A stretch of DNA of 48,497 bases from Candidatus Pelethousia gallinarum. Lineage in GTDB: Bacteria > Bacillota > Clostridia > Christensenellales > CAG-138. Position numbers and translations under genes: made by a program. The stretch's first letter is position 1. The number at the start of each line of letters is the position of its first letter. The stretch is from the NCBI GenBank assembly GCA_018711995.1, contig DVHO01000030.1, positions 1 through 48,497 on the forward strand. The letters are read 5' to 3'. The notes below the pieces were generated by a model. The model saw only the letters and a list, made by a program, of their open reading frames with translations. It did no database searches and had not been told where the DNA came from. Positions 21,990-36,856 of the stretch are shown here, piece after piece.

Positions 21990-22082
21990 GCCCGGGTAAA
22001 TCCATCCAACCTTACGCCATGGCATCCGGGGCCGGGCCGGCGGCCTGCCCCGGAATTTCATTTACATAAGGAGAACGGCAAT

Positions 22083-23471
22083 ATGTACGATATTTGTATC
22101 ATCGGCGGCGGCCCCGCAGGCTATGTAGGGGCGATCCGGGCAGCCCAGCTGGGCTTTACGGTGGCCCTGTGCGAGGAGCGGGATCTGGGCGGAACCTGCC
22201 TGAACCGGGGCTGCGTGCCCACCAAGGCCCTGATGCACGCGGCGGACGCTTACCGGAGCCTGTCGGCCATGGCCAGCATGGGGGTGTACCCGGGCCAGGC
22301 GTCCTTTGACTATGCCAAGATCCACGCCTATAAGCAGGCCACCGTGGATGAGCTAAGGGCGGGGATCCAGCAGCTGCTCCAGGCCAACAAGGTGCAGGTG
22401 ATCCAGGCCCGGGCCCAGGTATTGGCGCCGGGCAAGGTGCAGGCGGGGGAGGAGATCCTGGAGGCCAAGCACATCCTGGTGGCCACCGGCTCCTATCCCA
22501 GCATCCCCCCCATCCCGGGGGCCCGGGAGGATAGGGACGTATGTACCAGCGACGCCCTGCTGGAGGAACCGGACCGGTTTTACCAGCGGCTGATCATCAT
22601 CGGCGGCGGGGTGATCGGGGTGGAGATGGCCAGCGTTTATGCAGGGCTGGGATGCCAGGTGACCATCATCGAGGCCCTGGACCGGCTCTTGCCCATGATG
22701 GACCGGGAGATCAGCCAGAACCTTTCCATGATCCTGAAAAAGCGTGGGATCAGCGTCTACACCGGGGCCACGGTCACGGGCATCGCCCGGGAGGAAACGG
22801 GCTTATGCTGTAGCTTCACCACCAAAAAGGGCGAGGCAACGGCCCTTGGCGACGGGGTGCTGATCAGCGTGGGCCGCCGGCCCAATACCAACGGCTTGTT
22901 TGCCCAGGGCTGCGCCCCCGCCATGGAGCGGGGCTTCATCCAGGTGGACGCCGGGTATCAAAGCAGCATCCCCGGCATCTACGGGGTGGGGGACTGCAAC
23001 GGCAAGATGCAGCTGGCCCATGCCGCCGAGGCCCAGGCCCTGGCCTGCGTGGAGGGGATCGCCGGCAAGACGCCGGCCATCAACCCCAATGTGGTGCCTT
23101 CCTGCGTGTATACGGACCCGGAGATCGCTTGCATAGGCATCACCGCGGACGAGGCCAAGGCCCAGGGCATCCCCGCCCTTACGGGGAAATATGTGATGAA
23201 CGGCAACGCCAAGACCCGGATGGAGCAGGCGGAGCGCAGCTTTATCAAGCTGGTGTTCCATGGGGAGAGCCATGTGCTCCTGGGGGCCCAGCTCATGTGT
23301 CCCCGGGCCACGGATATGATCGGGGAGCTGGCCTGCGGGGTGGTGAACGGCCTGACGGCGGAACAACTGCTGGCCAGCCTGCGGCCCCATCCCACCTTTA
23401 TGGAGGGGGTCACCGAGGCGGTGGAGGCGGCCTTTGGCCATGCCATCCATGTAATGCCCGCCCGGAAATGA
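22083..23471 (+). CDS. lpdA: Dihydrolipoyl dehydrogenase (L protein)
   Basis: 462 aa. It has the FAD motif IIGGGPAGY, the redox-active disulfide CLNRGCVPTK, and a C-terminal HPT..E interface motif (HPTFMEGVTEA). Confidence 0.9.
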   Translation: MYDICIIGGGPAGYVGAIRAAQLGFTVALCEERDLGGTCLNRGCVPTKALMHAADAYRSLSAMASMGVYPGQASFDYAKIHAYKQATVDELRAGIQQLLQANKVQVIQARAQVLAPGKVQAGEEILEAKHILVATGSYPSIPPIPGAREDRDVCTSDALLEEPDRFYQRLIIIGGGVIGVEMASVYAGLGCQVTIIEALDRLLPMMDREISQNLSMILKKRGISVYTGATVTGIAREETGLCCSFTTKKGEATALGDGVLISVGRRPNTNGLFAQGCAPAMERGFIQVDAGYQSSIPGIYGVGDCNGKMQLAHAAEAQALACVEGIAGKTPAINPNVVPSCVYTDPEIACIGITADEAKAQGIPALTGKYVMNGNAKTRMEQAERSFIKLVFHGESHVLLGAQLMCPRATDMIGELACGVVNGLTAEQLLASLRPHPTFMEGVTEAVEAAFGHAIHVMPARK

Positions 23472-23548
23472 TCCGTCCCCGTCCGTCTCCGCCCTGGCAA
23501 CAAAACGGATAGGAGCAGGGCGCCTCGTGGCAAAGGTCAAAATATCCC

Positions 23549-23592
23549 ATATGCCGGGAGACTTGCAAACAGGCTCCCGGCATATTATATGT
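23549..23592 (+). terminator. Terminator of the gcv-lpdA operon
   Basis: 12-bp stem atatgccgggag...ctcccggcatat followed by a T-rich tatatgtt. Confidence 0.5.
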
Positions 23593-23704
23593 TGAAAGAC
23601 GGCGCCCCCTGCGCCATGCGCTTGGGCAAAGGGGGAAGATAAGCCGCCGAAAATCCCGGAACGTTGGATATGATTCTCCTACATTCTAGAAAAATAGCGG
23701 CTGG

Positions 23705-23738
23705 TTGACTTTTTTCAGCATACATGGTATTGTATAAT
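23705..23738 (+). promoter_or_regulatory. Candidate promoter for the 23767 gene
   Basis: TTGACT at 23705-23710, a 17-nt spacer, then TGgTATTGT, with an overlapping TATAAT at 23733-23738. The patch is AT-rich. Confidence 0.4.
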
Positions 23739-23766
23739 TATAAGTTATGGATAAGGATGGGCGTCT

Positions 23767-24879
23767 ATGTTCAAACAGCTCACGGTCACCTCTGCCGCTG
23801 AATATGATCGTATCCTGTATGGGCAAATGACGCCCCAAATGGCGGTTTCCTACCTGTTGGAAAACCGGCTCCCCGTCCGTACCTTCAGCGGCGTGCTCCA
23901 GCAGATGTATCCAGGCAAAGACCTGCAAATGCGTCTGGTGGATTTTTTTGTTTCCACAATGCCGGAAGCAAACCCCCAGTCCATCGTCAAAAAGATCAAG
24001 AACTGGCTTTCGGATAAAAACCTGCCCGCTACCCGGCAGGACCTGTTTCGCATTGCCTTTGCCCTGGGGTTTAGCGAAGGCCAGCTGGACTATCTGCTGA
24101 GCATGTGCACCGACTATGGCATCCAGTACCGGGATGGGCATGACGTGGTGTTCGCCTGGTTTTTGCGCAACGGTTACGGTTACCAGGAGGCGGACCGGTT
24201 TTTCCAGCAGCTGCCTCCGGCCCCCGGCCTCAACAGCTGGAGCCAGGCCCAGCAATCCCACTTGACCCGGGAGATCCAAAACGAATTCCTCATGATCCAA
24301 ACCCCGGAGGACCTGCGGCGGTGCTACCTGAAAAACCTGCATTATTTCGGCTCCCTGCATCTTCGGGCCTACTATTATTTCGACAAATTCCTCTCCCTGC
24401 TCATCCATCCGGTACCGGCTTGGCTGGATATCCCGGAGCCCTATTATTCCCTGGAGACGGTGATGCGCACCTATTTATCCATGCACATGCCCTCGGGGAA
24501 AAAACGGGAAAACTATTCCCTGGTCCAGCGGCTGATCAAGCAAAATTGGCCTAATGCCACCTCCCTGAAAAACATCCGCAGCCACAAGGAGGACGTGCCC
24601 CGCAAGCTGCTCCTGCTCTTGTATGTGATCACGGAGGATACCACCGTGGTTTCGGGCGGCCTGCTGGAAGCCCCGGAAACGGAGCTTACCATGCAGGAGC
24701 GGATCGAAGAGCATTGGTGGACCCTAAACGCCATGCTGGCGGATTGCGGCATGGCCCTGCTGGACCCTAGGAACATCAACGACTGGCTGATCCTTTACGC
24801 CATTGGCGCGGCGGGGGAAGAGGAGTCCATGAGCGAACGGCTGGAACAGGTGATCGCCCTGATGTACCAGGACCTATAA
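23767..24879 (+). CDS. Hypothetical protein, no recognised family
   Basis: 370-aa ORF with its own promoter-like region and a downstream bidirectional terminator. Codon usage looks like real coding sequence. I recognise no motif. Confidence 0.65.
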   Translation: MFKQLTVTSAAEYDRILYGQMTPQMAVSYLLENRLPVRTFSGVLQQMYPGKDLQMRLVDFFVSTMPEANPQSIVKKIKNWLSDKNLPATRQDLFRIAFALGFSEGQLDYLLSMCTDYGIQYRDGHDVVFAWFLRNGYGYQEADRFFQQLPPAPGLNSWSQAQQSHLTREIQNEFLMIQTPEDLRRCYLKNLHYFGSLHLRAYYYFDKFLSLLIHPVPAWLDIPEPYYSLETVMRTYLSMHMPSGKKRENYSLVQRLIKQNWPNATSLKNIRSHKEDVPRKLLLLLYVITEDTTVVSGGLLEAPETELTMQERIEEHWWTLNAMLADCGMALLDPRNINDWLILYAIGAAGEEESMSERLEQVIALMYQDL

Positions 24880-24898
24880 GCCCATAGGCGCAGGCAGA

Positions 24899-24930
24899 AA
24901 GCCGCCCGGGGAAGCATCCCCGGGCGGCTT
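24899..24930. terminator. Bidirectional terminator between convergent genes
   Basis: 13-bp stem aagccgcccgggg/aagcat/ccccgggcggctt, flanked by an A-run on the left and a T-run on the right. Confidence 0.6.
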
Positions 24931-24951
24931 GGCTTTCTAGGGCGGCTGGCA

Positions 24952-27900
24952 TTATTCCTGGCGGGGGGCGTTCCCAATGACGCGGTCGCTGGGCAGCGCC
25001 CGGTTGGTATATAGCTCGCCCCGGTTGTAGATGGCGGTTTCATCGCCTGCAAAGGTAATGGGCAGGAACAGGAAGAAGGACTGGTTGTTGTAGATCTGGC
25101 TGTCCTTCAATTGGGCGGAATATTCGTCCCAGCCGTTGAAAAACAGGTTGCCATCGTTACGGAGCACCGTGTTGGCGAAAACCAGGTTGCACTCCCGGAG
25201 GTTCGCGTCTGCATTTTGGGCCACGGTCAGGGAGCAGGCGTCCATGTTCATGGTCGCGCCGGAGCCAACAAGCTGGCCCTGGTTTTCCAGGGTGATGCTG
25301 GAATTCCGGAAAATGGCATAATTGTTCAACGCGATTAGAGAACTATCCGCTTCCAAGCTGACATCCGTCAGCGCCAAGGCGCCCAGATGCCCCAGCAGGC
25401 ACGCGGAGCGCCCCTCTAGGCGGAAGGCGCTTCCATCCGCAAAGAGGAAGTTGCCGGAATCCCGGACGCCGATGGCGGCCTCTTGCCGCAGCTGGATGTC
25501 TGCGCCCGGGGCGTACAACTGGCCGCCGTTGTCCAGCAGCAGGCTTCCATCCAGCAGCAGGCCGCCTCCATCGGGCAGGGATAGGGTCCCGCCCTCCAGC
25601 TGCACCACCGCGCGTTCCAGCAGGGACAGGTCCTGCGCCTCCAGCGCGCCCCCCTCGGCGAGGATGAGCTTGCAGCCGATGGCCGTCAAATGGCCCTCCC
25701 CCAGGGAGAGCTTCCCGGTGAGATACAGATCCTTCGTCAAGGTGAGATGGCCGCTATAGGCGAAATCGCTGGAAATGGCAATGGCTTCCACCTGGGGATC
25801 CGCCAGCAGGGCCGCAAGCTCCTCTGCCGTGTCGGCCTTGGGAGCGGCGGAGAGCTGCGCCATTTCCTCATCGGAGAGGATAGGGTAAATGGTGGGCTGG
25901 TCGCCGCATTGCAGGTCGATGGCGCCGCCGGTGGAGCAGTAGACGCCCTGCACCTGGTTGCCTATGCCGGACAGCTCGGCGCTTTGCGCCGCCTTTATGG
26001 TGCCGCCCTGGTTCTCCACCAGGAAGCTGTTGCGCAGGATTCCCTTTTCCTGGACATCCAGCTCGCCCTGGTTGCGCAAGATGCCGCAATTGACCAGCGC
26101 GGCGTTTTCCGCCACGGTGATGGAGCCGTAGTTATACAGGCTTGCGCCGGTTTGCAGGTAAAGCCCTTCCCCGCTAAACTCCGACGAGACTGGCTGAACC
26201 AGGATCTGCCCCAGGTTGACCAGGGCGCTGCCGCTTACGATATACATATCCGGCGTCTCCAGCGTCCCGGAGCAGGCGTTGAGGAACATTCCCTTCAAAA
26301 CCCGGGGAAGGTCGTTAAGCGCAGCCTGGCCGGCATTCCAGAACACACAAGCATTCCCCTCCCAGTCCATCCAGAGGCTGCTATCTATCGTGCCAAAGTT
26401 CAGCGCGGACGCGCCGGCGCCCATCCAAATGGAAGGCACGGACAAATCGCCATAATTGACAAGGACCGCCCGGCTGGAATACATGCATAACGCTTGATAG
26501 GAGTCCTCGCCTGGCTCCTGGGGGGCAGCGGAAAGGGTCACGCCTTCGCAAATATACACCGGGCAGGAAAAGGACAGCCCTTCATCCAGGACGATATCCC
26601 GGGTGATCTTGATGCCGCTGAGCAGCCGGCAGTCCTGGGCCGCCTTGAGCTCCTCCAGGGTGGATACCTCCTGGGCGCCGTCCAGGTCCTCCTGGAAAAT
26701 CACCACATAGGCCCCGCCTTCCCGGGCGAAGGTCAGATCCGCAGCCGACATGTTGGGCGAAGTCTCCATCCACAGGCTGCAGTTCGCCGCCTGCAAGCAG
26801 CCTGCCGCGCCGTCGGGGAAGAAGAGGCGCGTATCCTGGCCCCGCAGCCGCAGCTGGCTATAGCGGGCGTCCAGGGTGCCGTAGACCTCCAGGAAGCCCC
26901 CTTCCTCCACGATCAGTGCCTCGATCCCCAGGGTGGCTCCCTGGTCGATGCGCAGGGGCTTGGTCAGGGAAACCGGGCTGCCGTCCTTCTGGCAGGGGAG
27001 GGTTCCCTCCAGCCCCGCCGGCGCTACCAGGGCGGTAATCGACGGGTTCCCCATGAGCCGCTGGAAGCCATCGGCCGACATATCCAGGCTGGTGAGGATA
27101 TAGGCGCTTTCCCAGTCAACGGCGGCGGGGTCGATCTGGCTGGGCTGGGCCGAAACCTCTTCCACAGGTTCCACAGGTTCCACAGGTTCCACAGGCACCT
27201 GCTCCGGCGCGCCGCCGCCCAGCAGCAGCCCCGCCAGGCAGATGATGGCCGCCAGCACAAATACGCCACCCAGGGCCACATACCGGCCCTTTCCCGCCAG
27301 GTACTGCCGGAACCGGGAGGGGGTGGGGATGTCCGAGGTGATATCCGCCACGGGTTCCGGGGGTACGGGTTCCGGGGGCACAGGCTCCGGGGGAACGGGT
27401 TCCGGGGGCACAGGCTCCGGGGGCACAGGCCCCGGGGGCACAGGGTCCGGCACTACCGCCGGATACAGGGCGCCGTGGAGCTCCTCCATGGTCTGGAACC
27501 GGCCCCGGGGGGACAGGTTCAGGCCCCGTAAAATAGCCGCCTCCTGCTGGGGGGTGATCGCGATGCCCAGCTTGCTGGGCAGCATCAGGTCGGATTCGCC
27601 CCCGATCCGGTCCAGGGCCTGGGGCGGCTTTTTCCCCACCAGGCAGAAGTAGATGGTGGCGCACAGGGCGTATACGTCCGTCCAGGGACCCTGGCCCTTT
27701 TGTTGATACTGCTCGATGGGGGCATAGCCATGCTTGAGGGTGATGGTTAGGGTTTCCTCCCCGTGCTCGCTTTCCCGGGCGCAGCCAAAGTCGATGAGCC
27801 GCACCTCCCCGTTTTCCAGCATCAGGTTATCCGGGGAGATATCCCGGTGGATCAGGCCCCCCTCATGCAGGGTGGACAGGGCCCGGAACAGGGGCTCGAT

Positions 27901-28422
27901 CATGGGGAAGAGCTCCTGGGGGGAAAGCCGGCCGCCCCGCTGGGCCACCAGTTCGGTGAAGGTGGTGCCCTCGATGTATTCCATGACGATATAGGCGGTA
28001 TTGTTGGCCTCGAAGAAGTCCCGCACGCTGACGATGACCTGCTGCTTATCCATCTTGGCCATGGCCCTGGCTTCGTTGAGGAATTTCTTCTTGCCCCGCT
28101 CAAAGCCTTCCCGGGCCGGGCCTACGCTGTAGCCCGTCAGCTCCGGGGATATGGTGGCGTTGCGGCTGGCCTTGTCCACGGGATAATATTCCTTGATGGC
28201 CACCTTAAGCTCCAGCCGCAGGTCGCAGCCGATGTAGGTGATGCCAAAGCCACCTTCCCCCAGCACCCGGCCCACCAGGTAACGGTCCATCAGCACGGTG
28301 CCGGGCCGCAGATGGTGGGGGGAAGGGACATAGGTCCCGGCGGTCAGGCCGCAATTGGGGCAGCTGGCGTTGCCGGATATGGGCGTCATACAATATGGGC
28401 AATAATTCCGTTGGTTTTTCAC
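24952..28422 (-). CDS. Membrane Ser/Thr protein kinase: N-terminal zinc ribbon, Hanks kinase domain, Pro-rich repeats, one TM, ~750-aa repetitive ectodomain
   Basis: 1156 aa with a GTG start and GAGG upstream. Features: ribbon CPYCMTPISGNASCPNCG; kinase motifs GEGGFG, VAIKEY, HRDISPDN, DFGCAR, APIEQ; (PVPPE)n; TM YVALGGVFVLAAIICLAGLLLGG. The C-terminal region has Gly/Asn/Leu-rich beta-helix-like repeats. Confidence 0.85.
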   Translation of the reverse strand: MKNQRNYCPYCMTPISGNASCPNCGLTAGTYVPSPHHLRPGTVLMDRYLVGRVLGEGGFGITYIGCDLRLELKVAIKEYYPVDKASRNATISPELTGYSVGPAREGFERGKKKFLNEARAMAKMDKQQVIVSVRDFFEANNTAYIVMEYIEGTTFTELVAQRGGRLSPQELFPMIEPLFRALSTLHEGGLIHRDISPDNLMLENGEVRLIDFGCARESEHGEETLTITLKHGYAPIEQYQQKGQGPWTDVYALCATIYFCLVGKKPPQALDRIGGESDLMLPSKLGIAITPQQEAAILRGLNLSPRGRFQTMEELHGALYPAVVPDPVPPGPVPPEPVPPEPVPPEPVPPEPVPPEPVADITSDIPTPSRFRQYLAGKGRYVALGGVFVLAAIICLAGLLLGGGAPEQVPVEPVEPVEPVEEVSAQPSQIDPAAVDWESAYILTSLDMSADGFQRLMGNPSITALVAPAGLEGTLPCQKDGSPVSLTKPLRIDQGATLGIEALIVEEGGFLEVYGTLDARYSQLRLRGQDTRLFFPDGAAGCLQAANCSLWMETSPNMSAADLTFAREGGAYVVIFQEDLDGAQEVSTLEELKAAQDCRLLSGIKITRDIVLDEGLSFSCPVYICEGVTLSAAPQEPGEDSYQALCMYSSRAVLVNYGDLSVPSIWMGAGASALNFGTIDSSLWMDWEGNACVFWNAGQAALNDLPRVLKGMFLNACSGTLETPDMYIVSGSALVNLGQILVQPVSSEFSGEGLYLQTGASLYNYGSITVAENAALVNCGILRNQGELDVQEKGILRNSFLVENQGGTIKAAQSAELSGIGNQVQGVYCSTGGAIDLQCGDQPTIYPILSDEEMAQLSAAPKADTAEELAALLADPQVEAIAISSDFAYSGHLTLTKDLYLTGKLSLGEGHLTAIGCKLILAEGGALEAQDLSLLERAVVQLEGGTLSLPDGGGLLLDGSLLLDNGGQLYAPGADIQLRQEAAIGVRDSGNFLFADGSAFRLEGRSACLLGHLGALALTDVSLEADSSLIALNNYAIFRNSSITLENQGQLVGSGATMNMDACSLTVAQNADANLRECNLVFANTVLRNDGNLFFNGWDEYSAQLKDSQIYNNQSFFLFLPITFAGDETAIYNRGELYTNRALPSDRVIGNAPRQE
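27160..27195 (-). repeat. Intragenic 9-bp tandem repeat x4 (encodes PVE x4) on the extracellular side of the kinase TM
   Basis: ttccacagg repeated four times without variation. Confidence 0.9.
27351..27455 (-). repeat. Intragenic 15-bp tandem repeat, about 7 units (encodes PVPP[E/G] repeats) on the cytoplasmic side of the kinase TM
   Basis: Units of the form cgggttccgggggca/caggctccgggggca with third-position variation. Confidence 0.9.
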
Positions 28423-28452
28423 GTTCGCAGCCTCACAAATGGTCGTTGGTGG

Positions 28453-29478
28453 TTACAGGGCATGGATCAAAGCCGCCAGAAGGGCAAGCGCGCCCGCCCC
28501 GCACAGGCAAAGGATGGCAATGCCGAGGGGGGATAGCCGCTTTTTTGGGTCCGGGTCCGGGGGCAGGGGGTCGTCCTCGGAAAAGAAAGGCACCTTTTCA
28601 AGCAGGTCCAGCCACTGGGCCATGGTTTGAGGGCGCTGGCGGGCGTCTGCGGCCAGGCCCCACATGAGCAGGGACTCCAGTTCGGGAGATATCGGGACGC
28701 CTACCTTGCTGGGGGCAGGCAGGGGGTCCGGCTGGTTGTCATGGAGGGCGAAGATCCGTTCCGGCGCCTGGGGAGGCACCAGGCCGGTGATGCAATAATA
28801 GATGGTGGCGCACAGGGCGTACAGGTCGGTATAATCCCCCTGGCCCCGGGTCTGGTATTGCTCAAAGGGGGCGAAGCCGGGCTTGAGCAGCACGGACATG
28901 GAGCGGCCGTCCTCCATGGCCCGGGCGCATCCGAAATCCAGGAGCTTGAAGGAGCCGTCCGGCATCCACATGATGTTGTCCGGGGCGATGTCCCGGTGCA
29001 GCACCCCCCGCTGATGCATGGTGGAAAGATCCCGGATGAAGGAGAGCATGGGAGGCAGCAGGGTCTGGATGGGGATGGGCCCATCCCGCTCCACCATTTG
29101 GCGCAGGGTGATGCCATCCAGATATTCCATTACCATGTAGGCCGTGCCGCTTTCGGGAAAGAAATCCAAAATGTTTACCACGGAAGGGATCTCATCCAGG
29201 GCCTTAAGCATGGCGGCTTCGTTGAGGAAACTCTTTTTCCCCTTGGCATAGGCGTCCTGATGCTGGGGGCTGGGGGCGATGCCGCCATCCGGCGTCCGAA
29301 TGGGCTTGCACAGGTTGGGGAAATACTCCTTTACCGCCACGGGGACGCCCGTGGCGGTCTCCCGCCCCCGGTAGGTGATGCCGAAGCCGCCCTTGCCCAG
29401 GCAAGCGTCCAGCCGGTAACTATGGCGTGGGCCCTGAAGCAAATATCCCCCGGGCAGGTTGGTATCCAATGTCTCCAT
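28453..29478 (-). CDS. Ser/Thr protein kinase with C-terminal membrane anchor and no ectodomain
   Basis: Kinase motifs GKGGFG, VAVKEY, HRDIAPDN, DFGCAR, APFEQ. The C-terminal TM is LSPLGIAILCLCGAGALALLAALI. I prefer the ATG at 29478 (METLD), 1 nt after the upstream gene stop; the track ORF extends to 29502. Confidence 0.85.
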   Translation of the reverse strand: METLDTNLPGGYLLQGPRHSYRLDACLGKGGFGITYRGRETATGVPVAVKEYFPNLCKPIRTPDGGIAPSPQHQDAYAKGKKSFLNEAAMLKALDEIPSVVNILDFFPESGTAYMVMEYLDGITLRQMVERDGPIPIQTLLPPMLSFIRDLSTMHQRGVLHRDIAPDNIMWMPDGSFKLLDFGCARAMEDGRSMSVLLKPGFAPFEQYQTRGQGDYTDLYALCATIYYCITGLVPPQAPERIFALHDNQPDPLPAPSKVGVPISPELESLLMWGLAADARQRPQTMAQWLDLLEKVPFFSEDDPLPPDPDPKKRLSPLGIAILCLCGAGALALLAALIHAL

Positions 29479-29479
29479 G

Positions 29480-30817
29480 TCAGCTTCCCCGCTTTTCTGC
29501 AATCACAAAGGCTTCCAAGGGAGAGCCCAGGTAGAAGCTATCCCCCACCTGCAGCTCTATGGGCTGGTTGGGAAATAGTTTGGCGCCGTTTTTCAGGAAG
29601 GTGCCGTGGGTGGAGCCCAGGTCCTGCAAAAATAGTTTATCATGTTTGAACCAAACGGCACAATGCTTTCCACTTACCCCGGGGGTATTGGGGAACACCA
29701 CGTTGCACAGGTCCCGGTTGCGGCCCAGGATCAGCGGGTCCGTTTTGGGGATGAGGAACCGCTTGCCCGCCAGGGCGCCGGTGGTACCCTGGATCCGGTA
29801 GCCGGAATCCTGGGGATTCCCAACGGCCGCCGTGTCCCTCGGCTGGACGCGCTCCGGCGCGGGAAGAGTCTGCTTTTGAAGGGGCTGGGAGGCGTGCTTG
29901 CCCCGCTTGCCCTTCGTCAGCAGCACCGCCGCCACAACCACCGCCGCGCAAATTAACACGGCCCCGCCGATGATATAGGGAAGGTTGGAAGCGGAGCTGC
30001 CCGCCAGGGCGTAGGGGATGCTGTACTGATCCAGCAGATCTATGGCCTCCTGGATGTTGCAGGCGTAATAGTTTTGCTCCAGGGAATCCTCATCGGTCAC
30101 CGCCCAGGAATTGATGCCCAGCACCGCGCCTTGGTTATTGACCATGGGGCCGCCAGAATTGCCGTGCTGGATCACCATGTCGGTCTGGATGCGGCGCACG
30201 CCGGAGCCCGAGGAGGACAGCAGCCGGCTGATGGCGCCGCTGGTGACGGTCATATCCTGCAGGCCGTTTTGGGTGGCGGCGTCCATCGCCAGGTTATCCG
30301 ATAGCCCGGGGAAACCGATGCCGTAAACCTGGCTGCCGATCATATCCTCCGTGGGCGGCAGCAGGGGCAGTGCAATCCGCTGGTTCGTGGGGGTGCTCAG
30401 CCGCAGGATGGCCACGTCCGCGGTTTCGCTATAGGCCACCACCGTGGCGGGCAGGGAGGTTTCCTCATCGAAATAGATATCCACATAGGTTTTCAGGGTC
30501 ACGGAGCCGCCGTCCGTGGTGGGCAGGGTCACCCATTCGCCTTGGCCCTCTTCGATATAATTCTCCACCACATGGTGGTTGGTGATCAGGTATTCCGGAT
30601 CCTGATCCAGGGGGCCTACGAAGAACCCGCTGCCAACGGAGGCGACGCTGCCGTTGGAATCGGCGATGAGCGCGCCGTCCGCCCCCCGCATGGTGCAGTA
30701 GACCCGGGCTACGCCCTGCTTGGCGTCAATATAGGTGAAATCCTGTTTCGTACAGCCGCATAACAGCCCTATCAGAAGCAAAAGGGAGAAAAGACGGGGG
30801 AACCATTTGCGATACAT
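29480..30817 (-). CDS. Lipoprotein-type trypsin-like serine protease (S1) - TM - cytoplasmic FHA domain protein
   Basis: Start at ATG 30817 with AGGAG upstream; the track ORF extends to 30979. Signal/lipobox MYRKWFPRLFSLLLLIGLLCGC. Catalytic triad contexts ITNHHVV, TADVAILRL, GNSGGPMV. TM YIIGGAVLICAAVVVAAVLL. FHA domain LILGRNRDLCNVVFPNTPGVSGKHCAVWFKHDKLFLQDLGSTHGTFLNG-like. Confidence 0.8.
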   Translation of the reverse strand: MYRKWFPRLFSLLLLIGLLCGCTKQDFTYIDAKQGVARVYCTMRGADGALIADSNGSVASVGSGFFVGPLDQDPEYLITNHHVVENYIEEGQGEWVTLPTTDGGSVTLKTYVDIYFDEETSLPATVVAYSETADVAILRLSTPTNQRIALPLLPPTEDMIGSQVYGIGFPGLSDNLAMDAATQNGLQDMTVTSGAISRLLSSSGSGVRRIQTDMVIQHGNSGGPMVNNQGAVLGINSWAVTDEDSLEQNYYACNIQEAIDLLDQYSIPYALAGSSASNLPYIIGGAVLICAAVVVAAVLLTKGKRGKHASQPLQKQTLPAPERVQPRDTAAVGNPQDSGYRIQGTTGALAGKRFLIPKTDPLILGRNRDLCNVVFPNTPGVSGKHCAVWFKHDKLFLQDLGSTHGTFLKNGAKLFPNQPIELQVGDSFYLGSPLEAFVIAEKRGS

Positions 30818-30821
30818 TGTG

Positions 30822-31547
30822 TTAACTCCTTTCAGGTATGCGCAGCCAAATGGCCGCGGCGGAATTGTTGTCGTTGTTGGGGGGGATGCGCTGGGAAAGG
30901 ATTTGCCGCATCCGGCCGATCCAATCCTCCGGGGAGCTGGCCTGGGCAAGGGTTTGCAACATTTCCGCCTCGTACACATATTCCCAGAAGCCGTCGCTGC
31001 ACAGCAGGAAGGCGTGCTCCCCCGGCAACAGGGGGACGTTGCCCATATCCACGTTCAGGCCTCCCTCCTGGCCCAGGGCCCGGAAGATGCGGCTGCGGTC
31101 CTCGTGGAAGCGGAGCTGCTCCGGCTGGATCTGGCCCAGCAGCACGGCCACCTGGGAGGCGCTGTGGTCCCGGGTCTGGTACGCCAGGGCCCCGTTTAGA
31201 AACCGGTATAGCCGGGAATCGCCGGCATAGGCCCATTCGGCATAGCCGGGGGAAAGGGACAGGGCCACAATGGTGGATTTCATTTTGCATTCGGGGGTCT
31301 GCAGCTGCAGGATTTCCTGATGGGCTTTGAGGATGAGCCCGGATAGGCAATTGGGGAGGGAGGCCCCTTCCCAGCCGCCGCATACCGTATCCACCGCCAG
31401 GGAGGCGGCGATTTGGCCGCCGCCGTGGCCGCCCAGCCCGTCGGCCAGGACGGCCAGGACCTGGTCCTCCCCCGCTGTTTTTATCCCCACGGCGTCCTCG
31501 TTGCAGGCCCGCCCGCCGATATCGGAATAGCAAAACGTACGGATCAA
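30822..31547 (-). CDS. PP2C-family Ser/Thr phosphatase (soluble)
   Basis: 241 aa, TTG start with GGAGGG 8 nt upstream, overlapping the upstream stop (TTGA). Motifs: SDIGGRACNEDAV, LADGLGGHGGG, CSDGFWE. Confidence 0.85.
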   Translation of the reverse strand: MIRTFCYSDIGGRACNEDAVGIKTAGEDQVLAVLADGLGGHGGGQIAASLAVDTVCGGWEGASLPNCLSGLILKAHQEILQLQTPECKMKSTIVALSLSPGYAEWAYAGDSRLYRFLNGALAYQTRDHSASQVAVLLGQIQPEQLRFHEDRSRIFRALGQEGGLNVDMGNVPLLPGEHAFLLCSDGFWEYVYEAEMLQTLAQASSPEDWIGRMRQILSQRIPPNNDNNSAAAIWLRIPERS

Positions 31548-32560
31548 TGGGCTTCCCTCCTATTGGGGTTGCGCGGGCGGGGAGATTGCCCCCCCTCGCA
31601 GGCCAGGATTACGGCCGTATAGTTGTCCTGGTTTTGGTAGCCCTTTTGCAGGATGGCCGCCTCCAGGGCCTGAGGGGCGTTGGACCCCGCGCCTAGGGCC
31701 TTGAGAAGCTCCTGGTCGCTTAGGGCGTTATATACCCCGTCGGACATGAGCAGCAGCTGATCGCCGGGACGCAGGGCCAGGGGGCCGGCAGGGAGATCCA
31801 GCTGCTCCAGCGGGCCCATGCCCAGGAAGCTGACCAGCCCGTCCTTCCGCTTGTCCGTATAAACGTCCTGCAAGGGGATCTCCCCATTGACCGCCTGCAA
31901 GGCCAGGGTTTGTTTGAAATCGTGCTCCCGGGTCAGTTGGATCAGGCAGCCGTTCCGGCAAAGGCAAATGCGGCTATCCCCTATGTTGACGAAGGAAAAG
32001 ACATTGTCCTTTATCAAGCCCATGGCCAGGGTGGAGCCGCTGCTCCGGTATTGGCCGGGGCCTAGTATGCCGTTGACCTTTTGTACGGCCCATTGGGTCA
32101 GGGTCAATAGCGCCTGTTCCGGCGTGCCCTGGCCTTGGGAGTAGAGGAACCCGTCTAAAATGGTTTCCACCACCGCGGCGCTGATCTTATCCCCATGCTG
32201 GAGCCCGCCCATGCCGTCCGCCACTACGGCCAGGATGCCGTGGCTTTGCAGGCGGCTTGGGTCGGAGATCCCAAAGCTGTCCTGCTGGTAGTCCCGGGCA
32301 CCCTGGCCATGGACCTTGCCCACCGCCACGGAAACGATGGGGGCGGCGGGCTCACGAAGTCGGCGCAGGGCCAAGGCATTGCGCCTGGCCAAAACCAGCA
32401 GGGCCCCAACGCAGGCCAGCAGCCCCACAAGCAGGCACAAAACCACAGGGGGGAACCAGGGGGCCGCGCATAGGGATCGGAACCAGGTTTGCCAGGGCGA
32501 CAAGCCTTCGGCCGCATCCGCTGCAATGGCGGCGGGGGAGAGGGGGAAAGGAGGCATCAT
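31544..32560 (-). CDS. PP2C-family Ser/Thr phosphatase with N-terminal transmembrane segment
   Basis: 338 aa. TM PPVVLCLLVGLLACVGALLVLA. Motifs QDSFGI, VADGMGGLQHG, MSDGVYN. Confidence 0.85.
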   Translation of the reverse strand: MMPPFPLSPAAIAADAAEGLSPWQTWFRSLCAAPWFPPVVLCLLVGLLACVGALLVLARRNALALRRLREPAAPIVSVAVGKVHGQGARDYQQDSFGISDPSRLQSHGILAVVADGMGGLQHGDKISAAVVETILDGFLYSQGQGTPEQALLTLTQWAVQKVNGILGPGQYRSSGSTLAMGLIKDNVFSFVNIGDSRICLCRNGCLIQLTREHDFKQTLALQAVNGEIPLQDVYTDKRKDGLVSFLGMGPLEQLDLPAGPLALRPGDQLLLMSDGVYNALSDQELLKALGAGSNAPQALEAAILQKGYQNQDNYTAVILACEGGQSPRPRNPNRREAH

Positions 32561-32564
32561 AGCA

Positions 32565-33218
32565 TTACCCCTCGCTCCAGTCGAAATGCTCTCCGGATAG
32601 CCCGATAAAAATCAGGTTGGTGGAGCCGATGGTGATCCGGTCGTAGTTTTTCAATTCCGCTTCCCGGATCACCGGCTTGCCGTTGAGCAGGAGTGGGTTT
32701 TTCCCAAGCTCATGGGCGATATAGAAGCCCTTGGTCTGGGGGACATAGGTGACGCTGGAATCCCGCTCGGCGGAGATGGTGGCATCCCCGTGGATGCAGA
32801 TATCCCCCGAGACCCGGCCGATATAGTTATAGCCCACTCGAAGCCGGTAGTCGTTGCCCCGGCAGGGGCCGTTTATGGCCACCAGCCAGCCCACCACAGG
32901 GGAAGGCGCGCCTGCGGGGGTATGGGGGTCCACGGACATGGTGTCATGCATCCGGTTGGAAAGACGATGCTGGGCGGGGAAGGTGGTGGGGCCAAAGGCG
33001 GTGGGGCCGTCCGAGGGAACGTTCTGGGAAAAAGACGTCGGGTCTGTTGTGGCCGAAAAGCCGTCTTCTGTGGGCGTAGCATGGCCGGGCATCCCACCAA
33101 AGGGATCTAGGGATGGGATGAAACTCCCGCTGCTGCAATAGGGGCAGCTTTCATATCGGGATGGATCATAGGGATGCCCATTGGGGCAGGTCGTAATTTT
33201 TTTGTGGATTTCTGCCAT
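32565..33218 (-). CDS. Zinc-ribbon + FHA domain protein
   Basis: 217 aa with GGAGGG upstream. N-terminal ribbon CPNGHPYDPSRYESCPYC, a Pro/Thr-rich linker, and a C-terminal FHA domain (YIGRVSGDICIHGDATISAERDSSVTY...LLLNGKPV). Confidence 0.8.
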   Translation of the reverse strand: MAEIHKKITTCPNGHPYDPSRYESCPYCSSGSFIPSLDPFGGMPGHATPTEDGFSATTDPTSFSQNVPSDGPTAFGPTTFPAQHRLSNRMHDTMSVDPHTPAGAPSPVVGWLVAINGPCRGNDYRLRVGYNYIGRVSGDICIHGDATISAERDSSVTYVPQTKGFYIAHELGKNPLLLNGKPVIREAELKNYDRITIGSTNLIFIGLSGEHFDWSEG

Positions 33219-33248
33219 AATACAATCCCTCCGTAAAAAAAGATTTGG

Positions 33249-33938
33249 TTATAGATAAACGATTTGGCACAGGTTTTCCGGGGACCCTACGTAGAACCGG
33301 CTGCCGGGTTGCAGGCGTTCCGGGTAATTGGGCGGCAGCTTTTTCCCATCCGCCAAGGCGGTGCCGAAGCGGGAGTTTAGGTCGATGAGGATGGGCCCGC
33401 CCTGGTCTATCCGGATGCAGCAATGCTGATGGCTGACCCCGGGGGTGCCGTCGGGGAAGCGGACGCCGCAGGCGGGCGCCCGGCCCAGCACGATGCCGCT
33501 GCTGCCGATCCGGTAGGTATGGCCCCGGAGGGGGCCGGAAATGCATTTGATCCCCAGGCTGCGGCCGGCCTTGGCGGCAGGGAGGAAGGCAGGCCGCAGG
33601 GGCGGGCCAAAGGCGTTTTCCTCGGAGACCCCCGGCTGGCAAAACCAGATCACCAGCACGAGCCAGCCGAAAACCGGCACAAGGCCCATCAGCAGCCACA
33701 GGCCGCTACGGCCTATATCGTGGAGCCGGCGCACGGAAACCGACAGGCTGGGGATCAGAGTGAACAGGGAAAACAGCCCCAGCAGCAACCAGCCAAGGGC
33801 GGTAAACCTAAGCAGGGAAAAGGCGAAGAGGATGCTGTACTGAAACAGCATAAAGTACCAGAATTCCTTGCGGCCCGAGCGGCCGGAAAATTGGGCGTAG
33901 TTGCGCAGGGCCTGCTCTACAGCATTCATAAATTCCAT
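33249..33938 (-). CDS. DUF805 membrane domain fused to C-terminal FHA domain
   Basis: 229 aa with GGGAGG upstream. DUF805 signatures FSGRSGRKEFWYFMLF and RRLHDIGRSGLWLL. FHA domain IVLGRAPACGVRFPDGTPGVSHQHCCIRIDQGGPILIDLNSRFGTAL. Confidence 0.8.
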   Translation of the reverse strand: MEFMNAVEQALRNYAQFSGRSGRKEFWYFMLFQYSILFAFSLLRFTALGWLLLGLFSLFTLIPSLSVSVRRLHDIGRSGLWLLMGLVPVFGWLVLVIWFCQPGVSEENAFGPPLRPAFLPAAKAGRSLGIKCISGPLRGHTYRIGSSGIVLGRAPACGVRFPDGTPGVSHQHCCIRIDQGGPILIDLNSRFGTALADGKKLPPNYPERLQPGSRFYVGSPENLCQIVYL

Positions 33939-34076
33939 TGTTGGTCGCCTCCCTCTATGAAGAGCTAAATCATGATGCTAATTTTAGCATCCCGCCCTGC
34001 GGCTTTCGTCCAAATGCTTTCCATTTCCCCACCGGCCCGGCGAAACGCTAAAAGCCGCCCTTCAGGGCGGCTCAGC

Positions 34077-34421
34077 CTGTCGAAAAACCCTTGGGGGTTC
34101 GGGGGCCGCAATGCAGTTCGCAAAAGTCGCGCTGCGTCGGCCCGTGGGGCCTTCCTGGCGCTCCCTTGCTCACTGGGCTTCCGCCTCGCTCCTCCCGCCA
34201 CTGGCGGCGCTCGGCTTTGCCCCCCGGAGGCTATAATCGGATTTGGCGACACAAGGTGAATTGTCCCGAAGGGACAAGAGAAGGCCCCCTGGGGGGTGCG
34301 CGTCAAACCCGCAAAAAGCCTTGCGTAGCAAGGGTTTCTCTGCATAGCTCCCTGGCCGCGCCGTAGGCGCAAGGGAGCTATGAACACCTCGAAAAAGTGG
34401 CGCAAGCCACTTTTTCGACAG
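34077..34421 (+). repeat. Hairpin-rich dispersed repeat element, copy A (ends ctgtcgaaaaa...tttttcgacag)
   Basis: 34126-34421 aligns with the reverse complement of 48202-48497. By my manual alignment there are 5 substitutions outside one hairpin loop. Internal hairpins include ccgccactggcgg, tgtcccgaagggaca, agctccctggccgcgccgtaggcgcaagggagct and tcgaaaaagtggcgcaagccactttttcga. Confidence 0.85.
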
Positions 34422-34422
34422 C

Positions 34423-34456
34423 CAAAAACGCGGCGGATATCCATATCCGCCGCGTT
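34423..34456 (-). terminator. Terminator of the XRE gene (minus strand)
   Basis: Near-perfect palindrome aacgcggcggatat/cc/atatccgccgcgtt (34427-34456), followed on the minus strand by TTTTT (plus-strand aaaaa at 34424-34428). Confidence 0.7.
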
Positions 34457-34649
34457 AATCCATCCCAAGCAAGTCTTCCACGCGCACCCGCAAAACCTTT
34501 GCCAAATAGAGCAGCTCATAATCCGCCACCACCCGCTCCCCGGTCTCGATGCGGCTGATGGCCTTTTGGTTGATCGACAAGCCTTCCAATTGCAGCCAGG
34601 CCGCCAGCTGCTCCTGGGAGAGCTTCTTTCCCTCCCGGATGCGGCGCAC
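34455..34649 (-). CDS. XRE/Cro-C1-type helix-turn-helix regulator (short; start uncertain)
   Basis: 64-aa ORF from GTG. RRIREGKKLSQEQLAAWLQLEGLSINQKAISRIETGERV is a classic HTH_3 pattern. The in-frame sequence upstream (NASGENV) still looks like part of the domain but has no start codon. Confidence 0.7.
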   Translation of the reverse strand: MRRIREGKKLSQEQLAAWLQLEGLSINQKAISRIETGERVVADYELLYLAKVLRVRVEDLLGMD

Positions 34650-34864
34650 GTTTTCCCCGGATGCGTTACACCTTCCTTGGTATTTGTATATTTTCGTAAC
34701 ACATCACCTCCCTTCTTACCAATCTTTGGAATAAATTCATGTTGATTTTAGCGTATCCCTATGCTATTCTTATCCCAAAGATGACTAAACTATAACTTTA
34801 TTTTTTGACCTCGTTAAAAAAGAAATAGCTTTTATAAAAAACAAGCATTAAGGAGGAGAATTTT

Positions 34865-36856
34865 ATGAAAAAACGAGTTTCCGCCATTTTGTTGGCGCTG
34901 CTCATGGCTATGGGGTTGTTGCCAGGAGTTGCGGCGGCAAAAACATCCAATGCAACGCTGACCGTCTCAATCCGTGTACGCGCGTATAATCCAAATACCC
35001 AACAGCATGAGGTCTTTACCAATTTGCGGGTCTCTAGGACGGTAAAGGTAGAAGAAGGCACAAATCCCGAATATCCTGTTTCTTACTGGTTTGAAAAGGG
35101 GATAAAATACGGTTCCCCCTCCGACCCCTATTACGGGAAAGAAGGCTATAAGCTAATCGTAAAAATTGGCGATACGGAGCTAGACACCGCAAACGCATGG
35201 GTTTTCGATCATGACATGTCAAATGTTTCCGGCAGCGGCCAGACATTTCATCCTATATATACCCCTAGCTCCGGCCAATATCAGAATACGCTGTATATTT
35301 CAGGTGGTACGCCCCTTCCTGACCCCGGCCCCACCAAGCCAGAAGCGCCGGGGGAGAACGACCTGCCGGGCATCCTGGGAAATGACGTGGTACAGGTTGA
35401 CTGCATAAACGACAAGGTCAACCATGAAACAAAGCACTATGGCCTCAAAACCGGCAGCTACACCATCGGTGAAGTTGCGGGCGACGCCACCAGCGGCTAT
35501 ACCTGCGATATCACCATAAACGCCGCCCCCTACGTGGAGGCCTATAATGCGGATATGGGCATAGACCATACCCTTTCTCCCGCTGGCGAGCAGGCCCCCA
35601 AGACCATCACCCTCACCTGGGACGAGGAGAATGGCTGGCAAAAACCCGCCCAAGGGCTTCCCATCCTCTTCACCGTGATTTGCGAAGCGGAGGCGCCAGC
35701 GCCCGAAGCGCCTAAGCCGCCTACGGAGGACGACCTATCTAACATCCTGGGCGATGCGGTAGTCGAGGTGGAATGCGTCAACGAAGATGCCGGGCACGCC
35801 AAGCAAGCCTATGCCCTTATCGCTGACAGCTATACCATCGGCGAAGTTGCGGGCGACGCCACCAGCGGCTATACCTGCGATATCACCATAAACACCGCCC
35901 CCTACGTGGAGGCCTATAATGCGGATATGGGCATAGACCATACCCTTTCCCCCGAGGCGCAAACCCCCCAGACCATCACCCTCACCTGGGACGGGGAGAA
36001 GAGCAGTTGGACGGTGCAGCCCGACGCGCTCCCCATCCTCTTCACCGTGATTTGCGAAGCGGAGGCGCCAGCGCCCGAAGCGCCTAAGCCGCCTACGGAG
36101 GACGAGATACTAGCCCTTCTTGGGGATGCAAAGGTGGAGGTCATATGTACCCCCGGCCGTCATGGGACGCGGACCTATGCCCTACGGGCAGACTCCATCC
36201 GGTGCAGCGACGTATACGAAAGCGATGGGCAATTCTATTTGAACGTAACGCTTTCCGGCCAGCCGTACGTGCAAGCATATAGCCGGGATACCGGCAGGGC
36301 ACATACCCTTTCGGATCCGGCTGCCTATACCATTACGCTGGTATGGAGCGACGGATGGCATTTACAGGAGGAGTCTGCGCCAGTCTATGCCTTCCATGCC
36401 GCCTGCACGGCCGGCGGCGGGGATAGCGGCGGTTGGTATCCCCCCAGCACCGGCAGCCTGACGGTGACAAAAACCATGGCCGATGGGAATCGATCCAGGC
36501 AGTTCACCTTTGTGGTGACCCTGAATCGGGCGCTCAACGGCGTATATGGCGGTATGCGCTTTGAAAACGGCGTAGCCACCTTTACCCTGGGCCACGGCCA
36601 ATCCGTCCGGGCCTCCGGCCTGCCGGTGGGCACGACCTACACCGTAGAGGAAATCGGGAACGCTGGATACCAGGCCATCGCCACCGGCAACGCGGGTTCC
36701 ATCACCTGGTCAGGGGCAACCGCCAGCTTCCAGAACATCCCCCTATCCATTCCTTCCACAGGCGATATGCCTCGGGCGATCCTGGGAGCTACCCTCATTG
36801 CTCTATCCCTTTTGGGCTTAGCCGTGTATCATAGCCGGAAATCCTTCATCGGGTAA
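34865..36856 (+). CDS. Cell-wall-anchored surface protein: signal peptide, unique N-domain, three ~120-aa Cys-containing repeats, Cna-B/SpaA-like domain, LSIPSTGD sorting signal
   Basis: 663 aa with AAGGAGG upstream. Signal peptide MKKRVSAILLALLMAMGLLPGVAAA. Repeats are recognisable by LPGILG...V.C.N...GSYTIGEVAGDATSGYTCDITIN.APYVEAYNADMG..HTL...ITLTW...PILFTVIC. The prealbumin-like segment is GSLTVTKT...TFTLGHGQSVRASGLPVGTTYTVEEIGNAGYQA. The C-terminus is LSIPSTGD (36743-36766) followed by a hydrophobic stretch and HSRKSFIG. Confidence 0.85.
   Translation: MKKRVSAILLALLMAMGLLPGVAAAKTSNATLTVSIRVRAYNPNTQQHEVFTNLRVSRTVKVEEGTNPEYPVSYWFEKGIKYGSPSDPYYGKEGYKLIVKIGDTELDTANAWVFDHDMSNVSGSGQTFHPIYTPSSGQYQNTLYISGGTPLPDPGPTKPEAPGENDLPGILGNDVVQVDCINDKVNHETKHYGLKTGSYTIGEVAGDATSGYTCDITINAAPYVEAYNADMGIDHTLSPAGEQAPKTITLTWDEENGWQKPAQGLPILFTVICEAEAPAPEAPKPPTEDDLSNILGDAVVEVECVNEDAGHAKQAYALIADSYTIGEVAGDATSGYTCDITINTAPYVEAYNADMGIDHTLSPEAQTPQTITLTWDGEKSSWTVQPDALPILFTVICEAEAPAPEAPKPPTEDEILALLGDAKVEVICTPGRHGTRTYALRADSIRCSDVYESDGQFYLNVTLSGQPYVQAYSRDTGRAHTLSDPAAYTITLVWSDGWHLQEESAPVYAFHAACTAGGGDSGGWYPPSTGSLTVTKTMADGNRSRQFTFVVTLNRALNGVYGGMRFENGVATFTLGHGQSVRASGLPVGTTYTVEEIGNAGYQAIATGNAGSITWSGATASFQNIPLSIPSTGDMPRAILGATLIALSLLGLAVYHSRKSFIG
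35368..36111 (+). repeat. Intragenic tandem duplication, period 372 bp (124 codons), with near-identical blocks
   Basis: 35456-35577 matches 35828-35949 with a few mismatches. The 74-nt run cccatcctcttcaccgtgatttgcgaagcggaggcgccagcgcccgaagcgcctaagccgcctacggaggacga, starting at 35660 and at 36032, is identical in both units. Confidence 0.9.

Follow-up and report, generated by a model that had tools for sequence, protein, structure and literature searches.

The 48,497-nucleotide contig DVHO01000030.1 of Candidatus Pelethousia gallinarum (assembly GCA_018711995.1), hereafter called the window, carries on its minus strand seven tightly packed genes (g1–g7) predicted to encode three FHA-domain proteins, two PP2C phosphatases, and two Hanks-type Ser/Thr kinases, one of the FHA proteins being fused to a trypsin-like protease. 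On balance, and with modest confidence, we read this cluster as encoding a chromosomal, membrane-bound phosphothreonine signaling complex of gut Clostridia, in which activated receptor kinases would recruit an extracytoplasmic protease and other membrane proteins by docking. The evidence comes from the domains and intact catalytic residues of the products, their predicted topology, a structure model of a beta-helix receptor ectodomain, the conservation of the cluster in related genomes, and the diversification of the ectodomain. An eighth gene on the opposite strand (g8) is conserved along with the seven.

Results

Organization of the Operon

Domains were called with Pfam and NCBIfam, catalytic motifs and transmembrane segments were located with a motif and hydropathy script, and open reading frames (ORFs) were taken from a mechanical listing. 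The features of the cluster are the following, with their basis in parentheses.

33939..34023, minus strand: 5' leader and putative promoter region of the operon (nucleotide homology to the related locus L001 starts exactly at 34023)
33249..33938, minus strand: g1, DUF805 membrane domain with C-terminal FHA, 229 aa (Pfam)
32565..33218, minus strand: g2, predicted soluble adaptor, zinc-ribbon-like with divergent FHA, 217 aa (orthologue alignment)
31544..32560, minus strand: g3, membrane-anchored PP2C, 338 aa (Pfam PP2C_2)
30822..31547, minus strand: g4, soluble PP2C, TTG start, 241 aa (Pfam PP2C_2)
29480..30817, minus strand: g5, lipoprotein S1 protease, transmembrane helix and predicted cytoplasmic FHA, 445 aa (Pfam, motif script)
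28453..29502, minus strand: g6, tail-anchored Hanks Ser/Thr kinase, 349 aa (Pfam Pkinase, E = 9e-32)
24952..28422, minus strand: g7, receptor Ser/Thr kinase, 1156 aa (Pfam Pkinase, E = 3e-31)
24900..24929, no strand: putative bidirectional terminator hairpin between the convergent g7 and g8 (read from the sequence)
23767..24879, plus strand: g8, predicted all-alpha cytoplasmic protein convergent with g7, 370 aa (synteny, AlphaFold2)

An earlier note, made from the letters of this DNA, had described seven tightly packed minus-strand genes, and the ORF listing bears this out: the genes run co-directionally from 33938 to 24952 and are spaced from g1 to g7 by 30, 4, −4, 4, 1 (or a 23-nt overlap), and 30 nt, the start of g4 overlapping the stop of g3 by 4 nt. 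With such tight spacing and hairpin terminators on both flanks, the seven genes appear to form one transcription unit. The leader ends with the Shine–Dalgarno sequence GAGGGAGG ahead of the ATG of g1, and a hairpin followed by a T-run, read by eye as a terminator, lies just upstream of it at 34050–34071. At the other end, the hairpin at 24900–24929 has a perfect, GC-rich 12-bp stem and a 6-nt loop. Scans of promoter and terminator consensus sequences gave counts equal to the background. Nucleotide homology to the closest public relative (UMGS474, locus L001) extends from 34023 to 24900, and as it starts and stops at these positions, the conserved block matches the operon in extent.

Judged by their domains, the components are members of the Hanks kinase, PP2C, FHA, and S1 protease superfamilies. 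Pfam, NCBIfam, and the motif search agree with the earlier count of three predicted FHA proteins, two PP2Cs, and two active-looking Hanks kinases, and the motif script recovered all catalytic motifs of the PP2Cs, the protease, and the kinases, those of the kinases having already looked intact in the same note. Five of the seven operon proteins have predicted transmembrane segments. From the positively charged residues, the kinase, PP2C, and FHA domains are predicted to be cytoplasmic, and from its signal peptide and lipobox, the protease of g5 is predicted to be outside the cell. The ~730-aa C-terminal region of g7 is likewise predicted to be extracellular, and g6 to be tail-anchored.

FHA Proteins and Phosphatases

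The product of g1 matches DUF805 (E = 4e-29) and FHA (E = 8e-12; 45.9 bits against a cut-off of 20.7), has at least two transmembrane helices, and shows the motifs GR, VSHQH, and FGT in its translation. Its orthologues are found in the related loci L001, L003, L006, L089, and L093 and not in L092.

The reading of g2 as a zinc-ribbon–FHA protein holds in part. The N-terminal C-x3-H...C-P-x-C motif is zinc-ribbon-like without a Pfam match, and the FHA region of the window protein (E = 0.01, 16.7 bits) falls under the cut-off of 20.7, Yop-YscD_cpl being matched as weakly (E ~0.01). On the other hand, g2 orthologues carry recorded Pfam FHA matches, and an alignment of 13 orthologues shows the zinc ligands, IGR, IS[AR]E, and NG to be conserved; the FHA keeps GR, S, and NG, with the His of SxxH replaced. 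From the orthologue hits and the conserved pattern, we take g2 to be most probably an FHA protein despite its subthreshold score. Its middle part is a disordered linker, rich in Thr, Pro, and Ser and variable among orthologues.

The phosphatases g3 and g4 match PP2C_2 with E = 3e-13 (50.4 bits) and E = 7e-8 (32.8 bits), respectively, against a gathering score of 24. The motifs QQDS, DGMGG, SDG, and QDN are present in g3, and NEDA, DGLGG, SDG, and NDN in g4. A single N-terminal transmembrane helix (residues 39–57) followed by RRNALALRRLR anchors g3, its catalytic domain being predicted to face the cytoplasm.

An FHA-Tethered Extracytoplasmic Protease

The mechanical ORF of g5 spans 29480–30979, and an ATG at 30817 (MYRKWF...) opens a signal peptide and the lipobox LLCGC; this ATG is almost certainly the true start, giving a protein of 445 aa. 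The signal peptide and lipobox predict a protease outside the cell. Matches to Trypsin_2 (E = 6e-24; 85.9 bits against 27.6) and FHA (E = 4e-14; 53.4 bits against 20.7) are separated by a transmembrane helix at residues 282–300, followed by KGKRGK, and the predicted topology agrees with the earlier placement of the protease outside and puts its FHA inside. The protease motifs TNHHV, DVAIL, and GNSGGP are present, with the triad H82/D134/S221, and the triad and the FHA residues G365, R366, S382, and H385 are invariant in 23 diverse homologues. Although the protein matches MarP- and HtrA-family models of NCBIfam, it contains no PDZ domain and is therefore not a canonical HtrA/DegP (TIGR02037, 70.9 bits against a cut-off of 416).

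The g5 family comprises at least 161 clusters at 90% identity, and nearly all of the 120 listed share the architecture of protease, transmembrane helix, and FHA. In nearly every context examined, the homologues lie beside PP2C, FHA, and kinase genes, locus L007 keeping the kinase only. We know of no bacterial precedent for an extracytoplasmic enzyme tethered by an FHA domain; the sole FHA–trypsin fusion mentioned in the literature searched is a different one, FHA-FHA-Tryp in Bacteroides.

Receptor Kinases with a Diversifying Beta-Helix

Both kinases score above the Pkinase gathering score and show GxGxFG, VAIK/VAVK, HRDxxPxN, DFG, and AP[IF]E. The smaller one, g6, starts with TTG (an alternative ATG is at 29478) and ends with a transmembrane helix at residues 328–346 of 349. 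In g7, a zinc ribbon (CPYC...CPNC) and the kinase domain (~27418–28422) are followed by a transmembrane helix at 27223–27279 (residues 382–400) and an ectodomain of ~730 aa (24955–27135). Two tandem repeats are in frame, (PEPVP)n at 27349–27450 on the cytoplasmic side and (VEP)n at 27160–27195 on the outer side of the membrane helix. The copy number of PEPVP varies from 1 to ~8 among the alleles P0241–P0245, which are 95–97% identical, so the length of the spacer between kinase and membrane varies as well. The earlier note had looked to Pro/Thr-rich juxtamembrane regions of the kinases for FHA docking sites. This does not hold up: the juxtamembrane part of g7 is Pro/Glu/Val-rich (PEPVP)n with few Thr, the activation loop of g6 contains no Thr at all, and the Thr-rich disordered stretch of the system sits in g2.

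The g7 ectodomain has 13 detectable homologues only, gave no PDB sequence match, and shows a faint match to Pfam Pectate_lyase_5. Its AlphaFold2 model (predicted local distance difference test [pLDDT] 91.7, predicted TM-score 0.90) has a regular short-strand pattern, and the top Foldseek match was Antigen 43 (Ag43; 4kh3, E = 2e-5, prob 0.99), with Ag43 homologues, TibA, two-domain PL6 alginate lyases, Hap, and phage tailspikes among the further matches. We are confident that the modeled domain is a right-handed parallel beta-helix, though in fold class only because the TM-scores to PDB entries are low (~0.15–0.2). Given this fold, we lean toward a glycan, a surface polymer, or a surface contact as the ligand.

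A rival reading is contact sensing or kin recognition, in which Ag43-like beta-helices self-associate in trans and the kinase reports neighbors with the same allele. That the top structural matches, Antigen 43 and TibA, are self-associating autotransporter passengers would fit, as would the diversity of g7 alleles and the apparent interspecies exchange described below. However, the fold match is at class level given its TM-scores, and PL6 lyases and tailspikes match almost equally well; we consider this reading very unlikely.

The ectodomain is, as judged from the sequences, the fastest-evolving part of the system. In comparison with the Blautia locus, identity was 73% for the kinase domain, 61% for the PP2C g4, 58% for g8, 51% for the protease domain, and 26% for the ectodomain. 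Paralogous kinases within a locus (pairs from L091, L009, and L090) behave similarly, with kinase domains 47–78% identical and ectodomains ~30–35% identical over the alignable stretches. Between the window and L001 (3539–12708), nucleotide identity is ~77–86% over g1–g6 (28400–34023) and steps up to 92–98% over g7 (24952–28094), which suggests that lineages have exchanged g7 at a later time than the other genes of the operon.

Conservation of the Cluster

We compared the window with related loci whose gene contexts were obtained from exact-protein look-ups and phmmer mapping of genes, counting 13 distinct loci as L005 duplicates L004 and L011 duplicates L010. A scan of metagenomes with the protease–FHA alignment rested on generic trypsin motifs (GNSGGP, TNHH), and 77 of its 80 loci were unrelated HtrA-like genes, L009–L011 alone being useful; a genome scan with one protein query found two close relatives only.

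Of the 13 loci, 11 have the core of the cluster, defined as the zinc-ribbon–FHA protein, the membrane PP2C (usually with the second PP2C), the protease–FHA protein, and one kinase or more. Of the other two, L091 is cut by the end of the retrieved locus, and L007 is reduced to protease–FHA, a kinase, a remnant receptor-kinase N terminus, and g8. The cluster is found in Oscillospiraceae, Lachnospiraceae (Blautia; g8 homologues labeled Roseburia), and Flavonifractor-like genomes. Two types were distinguished, with L007 and L010/L011 standing apart from them. In type A (the window, L001, L002 from Candidatus Faecousia, L003 from Blautia, L006, L089 from Lachnospiraceae, L090, L092, and L093), the gene order of the window is kept, with one to three large receptor kinases and, in most, the DUF805–FHA gene. 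Type B (L004/L005 and L008) runs from a kinase through FHA, PP2C, protease–FHA, and PP2C to vWA–FHA, with an additional RDD–FHA gene in L004/L005. The DUF805–FHA gene is thus an optional accessory on this comparison, being replaced by RDD–FHA and vWA–FHA in type B and missing from some loci. Since the core recurs while the membrane-FHA accessory varies among DUF805, RDD, and vWA, the FHA modules fit interchangeable docking handles.

Several loci show the identical seven-gene order amid unrelated flanks, with protein identities of 35–80%, and the cluster is thus conserved as a unit, a point that the earlier note had left to a synteny search. Because synteny is kept amid unrelated flanks, we rejected chance adjacency of the seven genes. 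An origin as a prophage or island found no support in the window, the GC content being native and the neighbors housekeeping genes (glycine cleavage, mfd).

Receptor kinases also occur in tandem arrays of three or four paralogues, at 1606–9640 of L010, 1524–9642 of L011, and 11171–21119 of L091, with four tandem kinases in L010/L011. In L006, the small and the large kinase are separated by two extra genes (324 and 334 aa; 11504–13479), which are without a recorded Pfam match, give phmmer scores of 173–228 bits to the g7 kinase domain, and may be pseudokinases.

The pattern of conservation bears on the possibility that the cluster is a surveillance or conflict system, in which the polymorphic beta-helix kinases sense phage adsorption, a foreign surface polymer, or an envelope attack, and the FHA-tethered protease and the membrane proteins serve as effectors, for instance by receptor shedding or surface remodeling. 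Such a role would be in keeping with an ectodomain that diverges very fast but retains its fold, tandem arrays of two to four receptor-kinase paralogues with differing ectodomains, the apparently more recent interspecies exchange of g7 than of the remaining operon, repeat linkers that vary by strain, swappable FHA-fused accessories, unrelated flanks in different genomes, and the likeness of the beta-helix to tailspikes and adhesins. The cytoplasmic parts, however, are strongly conserved, as in housekeeping signaling; the cluster sits amid housekeeping genes with native GC content, no integrase or mobility gene adjoins it in the window, and it has no toxin-type effector (nuclease, pore former, or NADase). 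In PADLOC-DB v2, the kinases match mad6 and PD-T4-6 over the kinase domain only (E ~1e-47; PADLOC without cut-offs), the PP2Cs and the protease give weak generic matches, g1, g2, and g8 give none, and no multigene architecture fits. The matches to models of known antiphage defense systems are to generic domains only, and we regard a surveillance role as unlikely.

An Eighth Conserved Gene

The signaling complex that we favor may have a further member. The gene g8, which is not in the earlier note, lies next to g7 on the opposite strand, has counterparts of 58–81% identity in L002, L003, L006, L007, and L089–L093, and is, in each of the nine loci carrying it, the opposite-strand neighbor of the last receptor kinase (in L092, with a small DUF559 gene in between). 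Searches for its family gave 454 homologues in the 90% database and, at 50% identity, 992 clusters. The AlphaFold2 model (pLDDT 78) is all helices, and the motif script found no transmembrane segment. No significant match to g8 was found in Pfam, NCBIfam, PHROGs, PADLOC, or PDB sequence profiles, nor a significant Foldseek neighbor of its model in PDB or BFVD, and Pfam likewise gave no significant match when run on 35 close homologues and on 10 that were more distant or longer. Residues ~40–115 resemble an Xre-type helix-turn-helix (HTH), nonsignificantly throughout: HTH_31 matches 1 of the 35 homologues (E = 0.18), Foldseek gave a local 69-column match to the N-terminal domain of HppE (prob 0.44, E = 5), several CI and HTH phage proteins are among the nonsignificant BFVD matches, and hhalign with a small, hand-assembled Xre alignment aligned residues 78–106 (E = 0.14). 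Because this unassigned gene is equally conserved beside the receptor kinase, it is doubtful that the operon is a self-contained system, as had been proposed.

In two Lachnospiraceae loci, an RVT_1 reverse-transcriptase gene (412–418 aa) and a 157-aa gene lie beside g8 (L003, 17776–19808; L089, 7851–9842). A diversity-generating retroelement was considered and rejected, the repeats in L003 reflecting paralogy of two kinase domains, with no template/variable pair.

Proposed Mechanism

In our preferred model of a membrane-bound phosphothreonine complex, the fast-evolving beta-helix of the g7 receptor kinase or kinases would most likely bind a glycan or surface polymer or make a surface contact. 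Ligand-activated g7, together with g6, would phosphorylate Thr residues on themselves and on their partners, the Thr-rich linker of g2 being the most obvious substrate. The marks would be read by the three FHA proteins, namely the soluble adaptor g2, the DUF805 protein g1, and the tail of g5. Docking through the FHA of g5 would bring its protease beside the activated receptor, and extracellular proteolysis, whether of the receptor ectodomain, the ligand, or nearby wall proteins, would thereby be controlled from inside. The membrane PP2C g3 and the soluble PP2C g4 would erase the marks and reset the system, and g8 may be a further cytoplasmic partner acting as substrate, scaffold, or output.

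The docking step is modeled on the established action of FHA proteins in mycobacterial, KAPP, and Deinococcus systems and would hold here by analogy. Docking of FHA proteins on the phosphothreonines of kinases is the established mode in mycobacterial PknB/FhaA/FipA and in plant KAPP. An FHA-based mode of action applies also to the Deinococcus DRA0331–0334 module (bioRxiv 10.64898/2026.01.23.701218).

Several points weigh against this model. We infer from the sequences and models its interactions, the FHA docking, the targets of kinases and protease, the ligand, and the role of g8. The activation loop of g6 is Thr-free, the linker of g7 is Thr-poor, and the FHA of g2 is divergent. Beta-helix folds serve many roles, as lyases, adhesins, and tailspikes, and with TM-scores of ~0.15–0.2 the ligand class is a lean. 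Finally, g8 is without an assignable function and stands in a separate transcription unit.

The competing explanations differ mainly in the biological input. A more far-reaching version would make the cluster a recognition system built on receptor kinases, with an extracellular protease controlled from the inside out, in which the polymorphic beta-helices, horizontally exchanged and in some genomes duplicated, recognize nonself or self surfaces (of phage, competitors, or kin, or host and dietary glycans) and g8 is the dedicated cytoplasmic output. We hold this to be improbable. If true, it would parallel plant receptor-kinase immunity, with surface proteolysis licensed from the cytoplasm by phosphothreonine marks.

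Comparison with Known Systems

Operons of Hanks kinase, PP2C, and FHA genes are known mainly from Actinobacteria, and in Firmicutes such signaling is commonly taken to mean one PASTA kinase pair. The earlier note had named the actinobacterial fhaA-fhaB(fipA)-pstP-rodA-pbpA-pknA-pknB cluster (Mycobacterium, Corynebacterium) as the nearest paradigm, and the resemblance in gene order is real. Both are operons whose co-directional genes encode a pair of FHA proteins, a membrane PP2C, and a pair of Hanks kinases; in both, one FHA protein has a disordered linker and the other is membrane-anchored, and the last kinase bears a sensor ectodomain. The gene types also follow the same order: FHA, FHA, PP2C, two inserted genes, kinase, and kinase. 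The inserted genes differ, rodA and pbpA being replaced here by the second PP2C and the protease–FHA gene, and the ectodomain is a predicted beta-helix instead of PASTA repeats. The window has in addition a third FHA on the DUF805 protein, N-terminal zinc ribbons, and g8.

This likeness raises the question of an envelope growth or division regulator, a counterpart of the actinobacterial FhaA...PknB operon or of PrkC/PrpC, whose ectodomain would sense the cell's own wall polymers and whose protease would act on wall hydrolases in the way that MarP processes RipA. Besides the shared order of gene types and the matches of g5 to MarP- and HtrA-family models, the best NCBIfam matches of the FHA regions of g1 and g5 are to FhaB/FipA, with the g5 match spanning transmembrane helix, linker, and FHA, and the cluster is in single copy per genome context and conserved across families. 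The scores are, however, far under the equivalog cut-offs: 33 bits for g1 and 36 for g5 against 125 (FhaB_Rv0019c), 132 bits against 450 for PknB_PASTA_kin, where the alignment covers the kinase domain alone, and 98 and 128 bits (the latter for g4) against 230 for Stp1_PP2C_phos. As the earlier note had claimed, PASTA, RodA, and penicillin-binding protein domains are missing: no FTSW_RODA_SPOVE or transpeptidase domain was found in the seven products or in any gene within 22000–37000, and Pfam found no PASTA match in the window proteins. Fast ectodomain turnover and arrays of paralogues are furthermore unexpected for a sensor of an invariant self-polymer. We judge an envelope regulator to have a low probability.

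The phosphothreonine complex proposed here shares the logic of several other systems. Sulfolobus has ArnA (zinc finger–FHA) and ArnB (vWA), and the 'TerY-P triad' reportedly set out by Anantharaman and colleagues in 2012 is of the same kind. With these vWA modules, the cluster shares kinase, PP2C, and FHA genes in a single operon as a push-pull unit, and g2 resembles ArnA in its zinc-finger–FHA architecture. A module of vWA, Ser/Thr kinase, FHA, and PP2C is also present in Deinococcus (DRA0331–0334; bioRxiv 10.64898/2026.01.23.701218). The vWA modules, however, lack the protease–FHA fusion, the beta-helix receptor kinase, the DUF805–FHA protein, and g8, and Pfam found no VWA domain in the seven window proteins; among the related clusters, a VWA_2–FHA protein occurs in type B only (L004, L005, and L008).

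Plant receptor-like kinases with KAPP, which combines a membrane anchor, a KI-FHA domain, and a PP2C, follow the same working logic: a receptor kinase that spans the membrane once and has a variable ectodomain is read by an FHA and reset by a PP2C anchored in the membrane. Here, in contrast, separate proteins carry FHA and PP2C, the host is a bacterium, and homology is limited to the domains. The Deinococcus preprint likewise cites KAPP (bioRxiv 10.64898/2026.01.23.701218). The PrkC/PrpC pairs (Stk1/Stp1, IreK/IreP) have in common with the window a single-pass Hanks kinase with a sensor ectodomain and a co-operonic PP2C, but here there are no PASTA repeats, kinases and PP2Cs come in twos, and the three FHA proteins have no equivalent in PrkC operons. 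The threonine-phosphorylation pathway of the type VI secretion system (T6SS), PpkA-PppA-Fha1, similarly builds a membrane-localized posttranslational switch from a Hanks-type receptor kinase, a PP2C, and a scaffold with an FHA; the window cluster differs in having no T6SS genes and a Gram-positive host, and the TagH model scores 19–23 bits against 120.

By their defining features, then, the cluster is not an actinobacterial operon, a PrkC/PrpC pair, a T6SS phosphorylation pathway, or a vWA triad. Full-text literature searches found no paper describing this architecture and none combining DUF805 and FHA, in agreement with the earlier view that the system has not been characterized.

Neighboring Genes

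The 900-bp intergenic region upstream of g1 contains an ORF of 245 aa (33965–34702, minus strand). Its translation is Arg/Pro-rich and of low complexity, L001 lacks a counterpart, and the ORF is unlikely to be a real gene. Divergent from the operon lie two surface-protein genes on the plus strand. The product of 34865–36856 contains repeats of ~130 aa, a DUF7601 domain similar to those of pilus ancillary proteins, and an anchor-like C-terminal segment; that of 37138–38922 has a weak LPXTG-like C terminus. This surface-protein neighborhood (34865–38922) is not kept in relatives. On the other side, a glycine riboswitch (15870–15950, plus strand; 69.7 bits) precedes a 926-aa ORF (16038–18818, plus strand) that joins a GCV_T aminomethyltransferase and a complete serine hydroxymethyltransferase domain in a single reading frame. 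Genes for the GcvP subunits and a lipoamide-dehydrogenase-like gene follow downstream.

Significance

As far as we could establish, three features are new: an extracytoplasmic protease tethered to an FHA, beta-helix receptor kinases that diversify, and the conserved partner g8. The cluster would give abundant gut Clostridia (Oscillospiraceae and Lachnospiraceae) a widespread second phosphothreonine system, much richer than the first. An FHA tethered across the membrane to a protease is a possible route to steer surface proteolysis from inside the cell, the beta-helix receptor kinases have sensor domains that diversify, duplicate, and seem to move between species, and g8 is a strongly conserved partner without recognizable fold relatives. 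Each of these three novelties could reveal what gut anaerobes sense at their surface.

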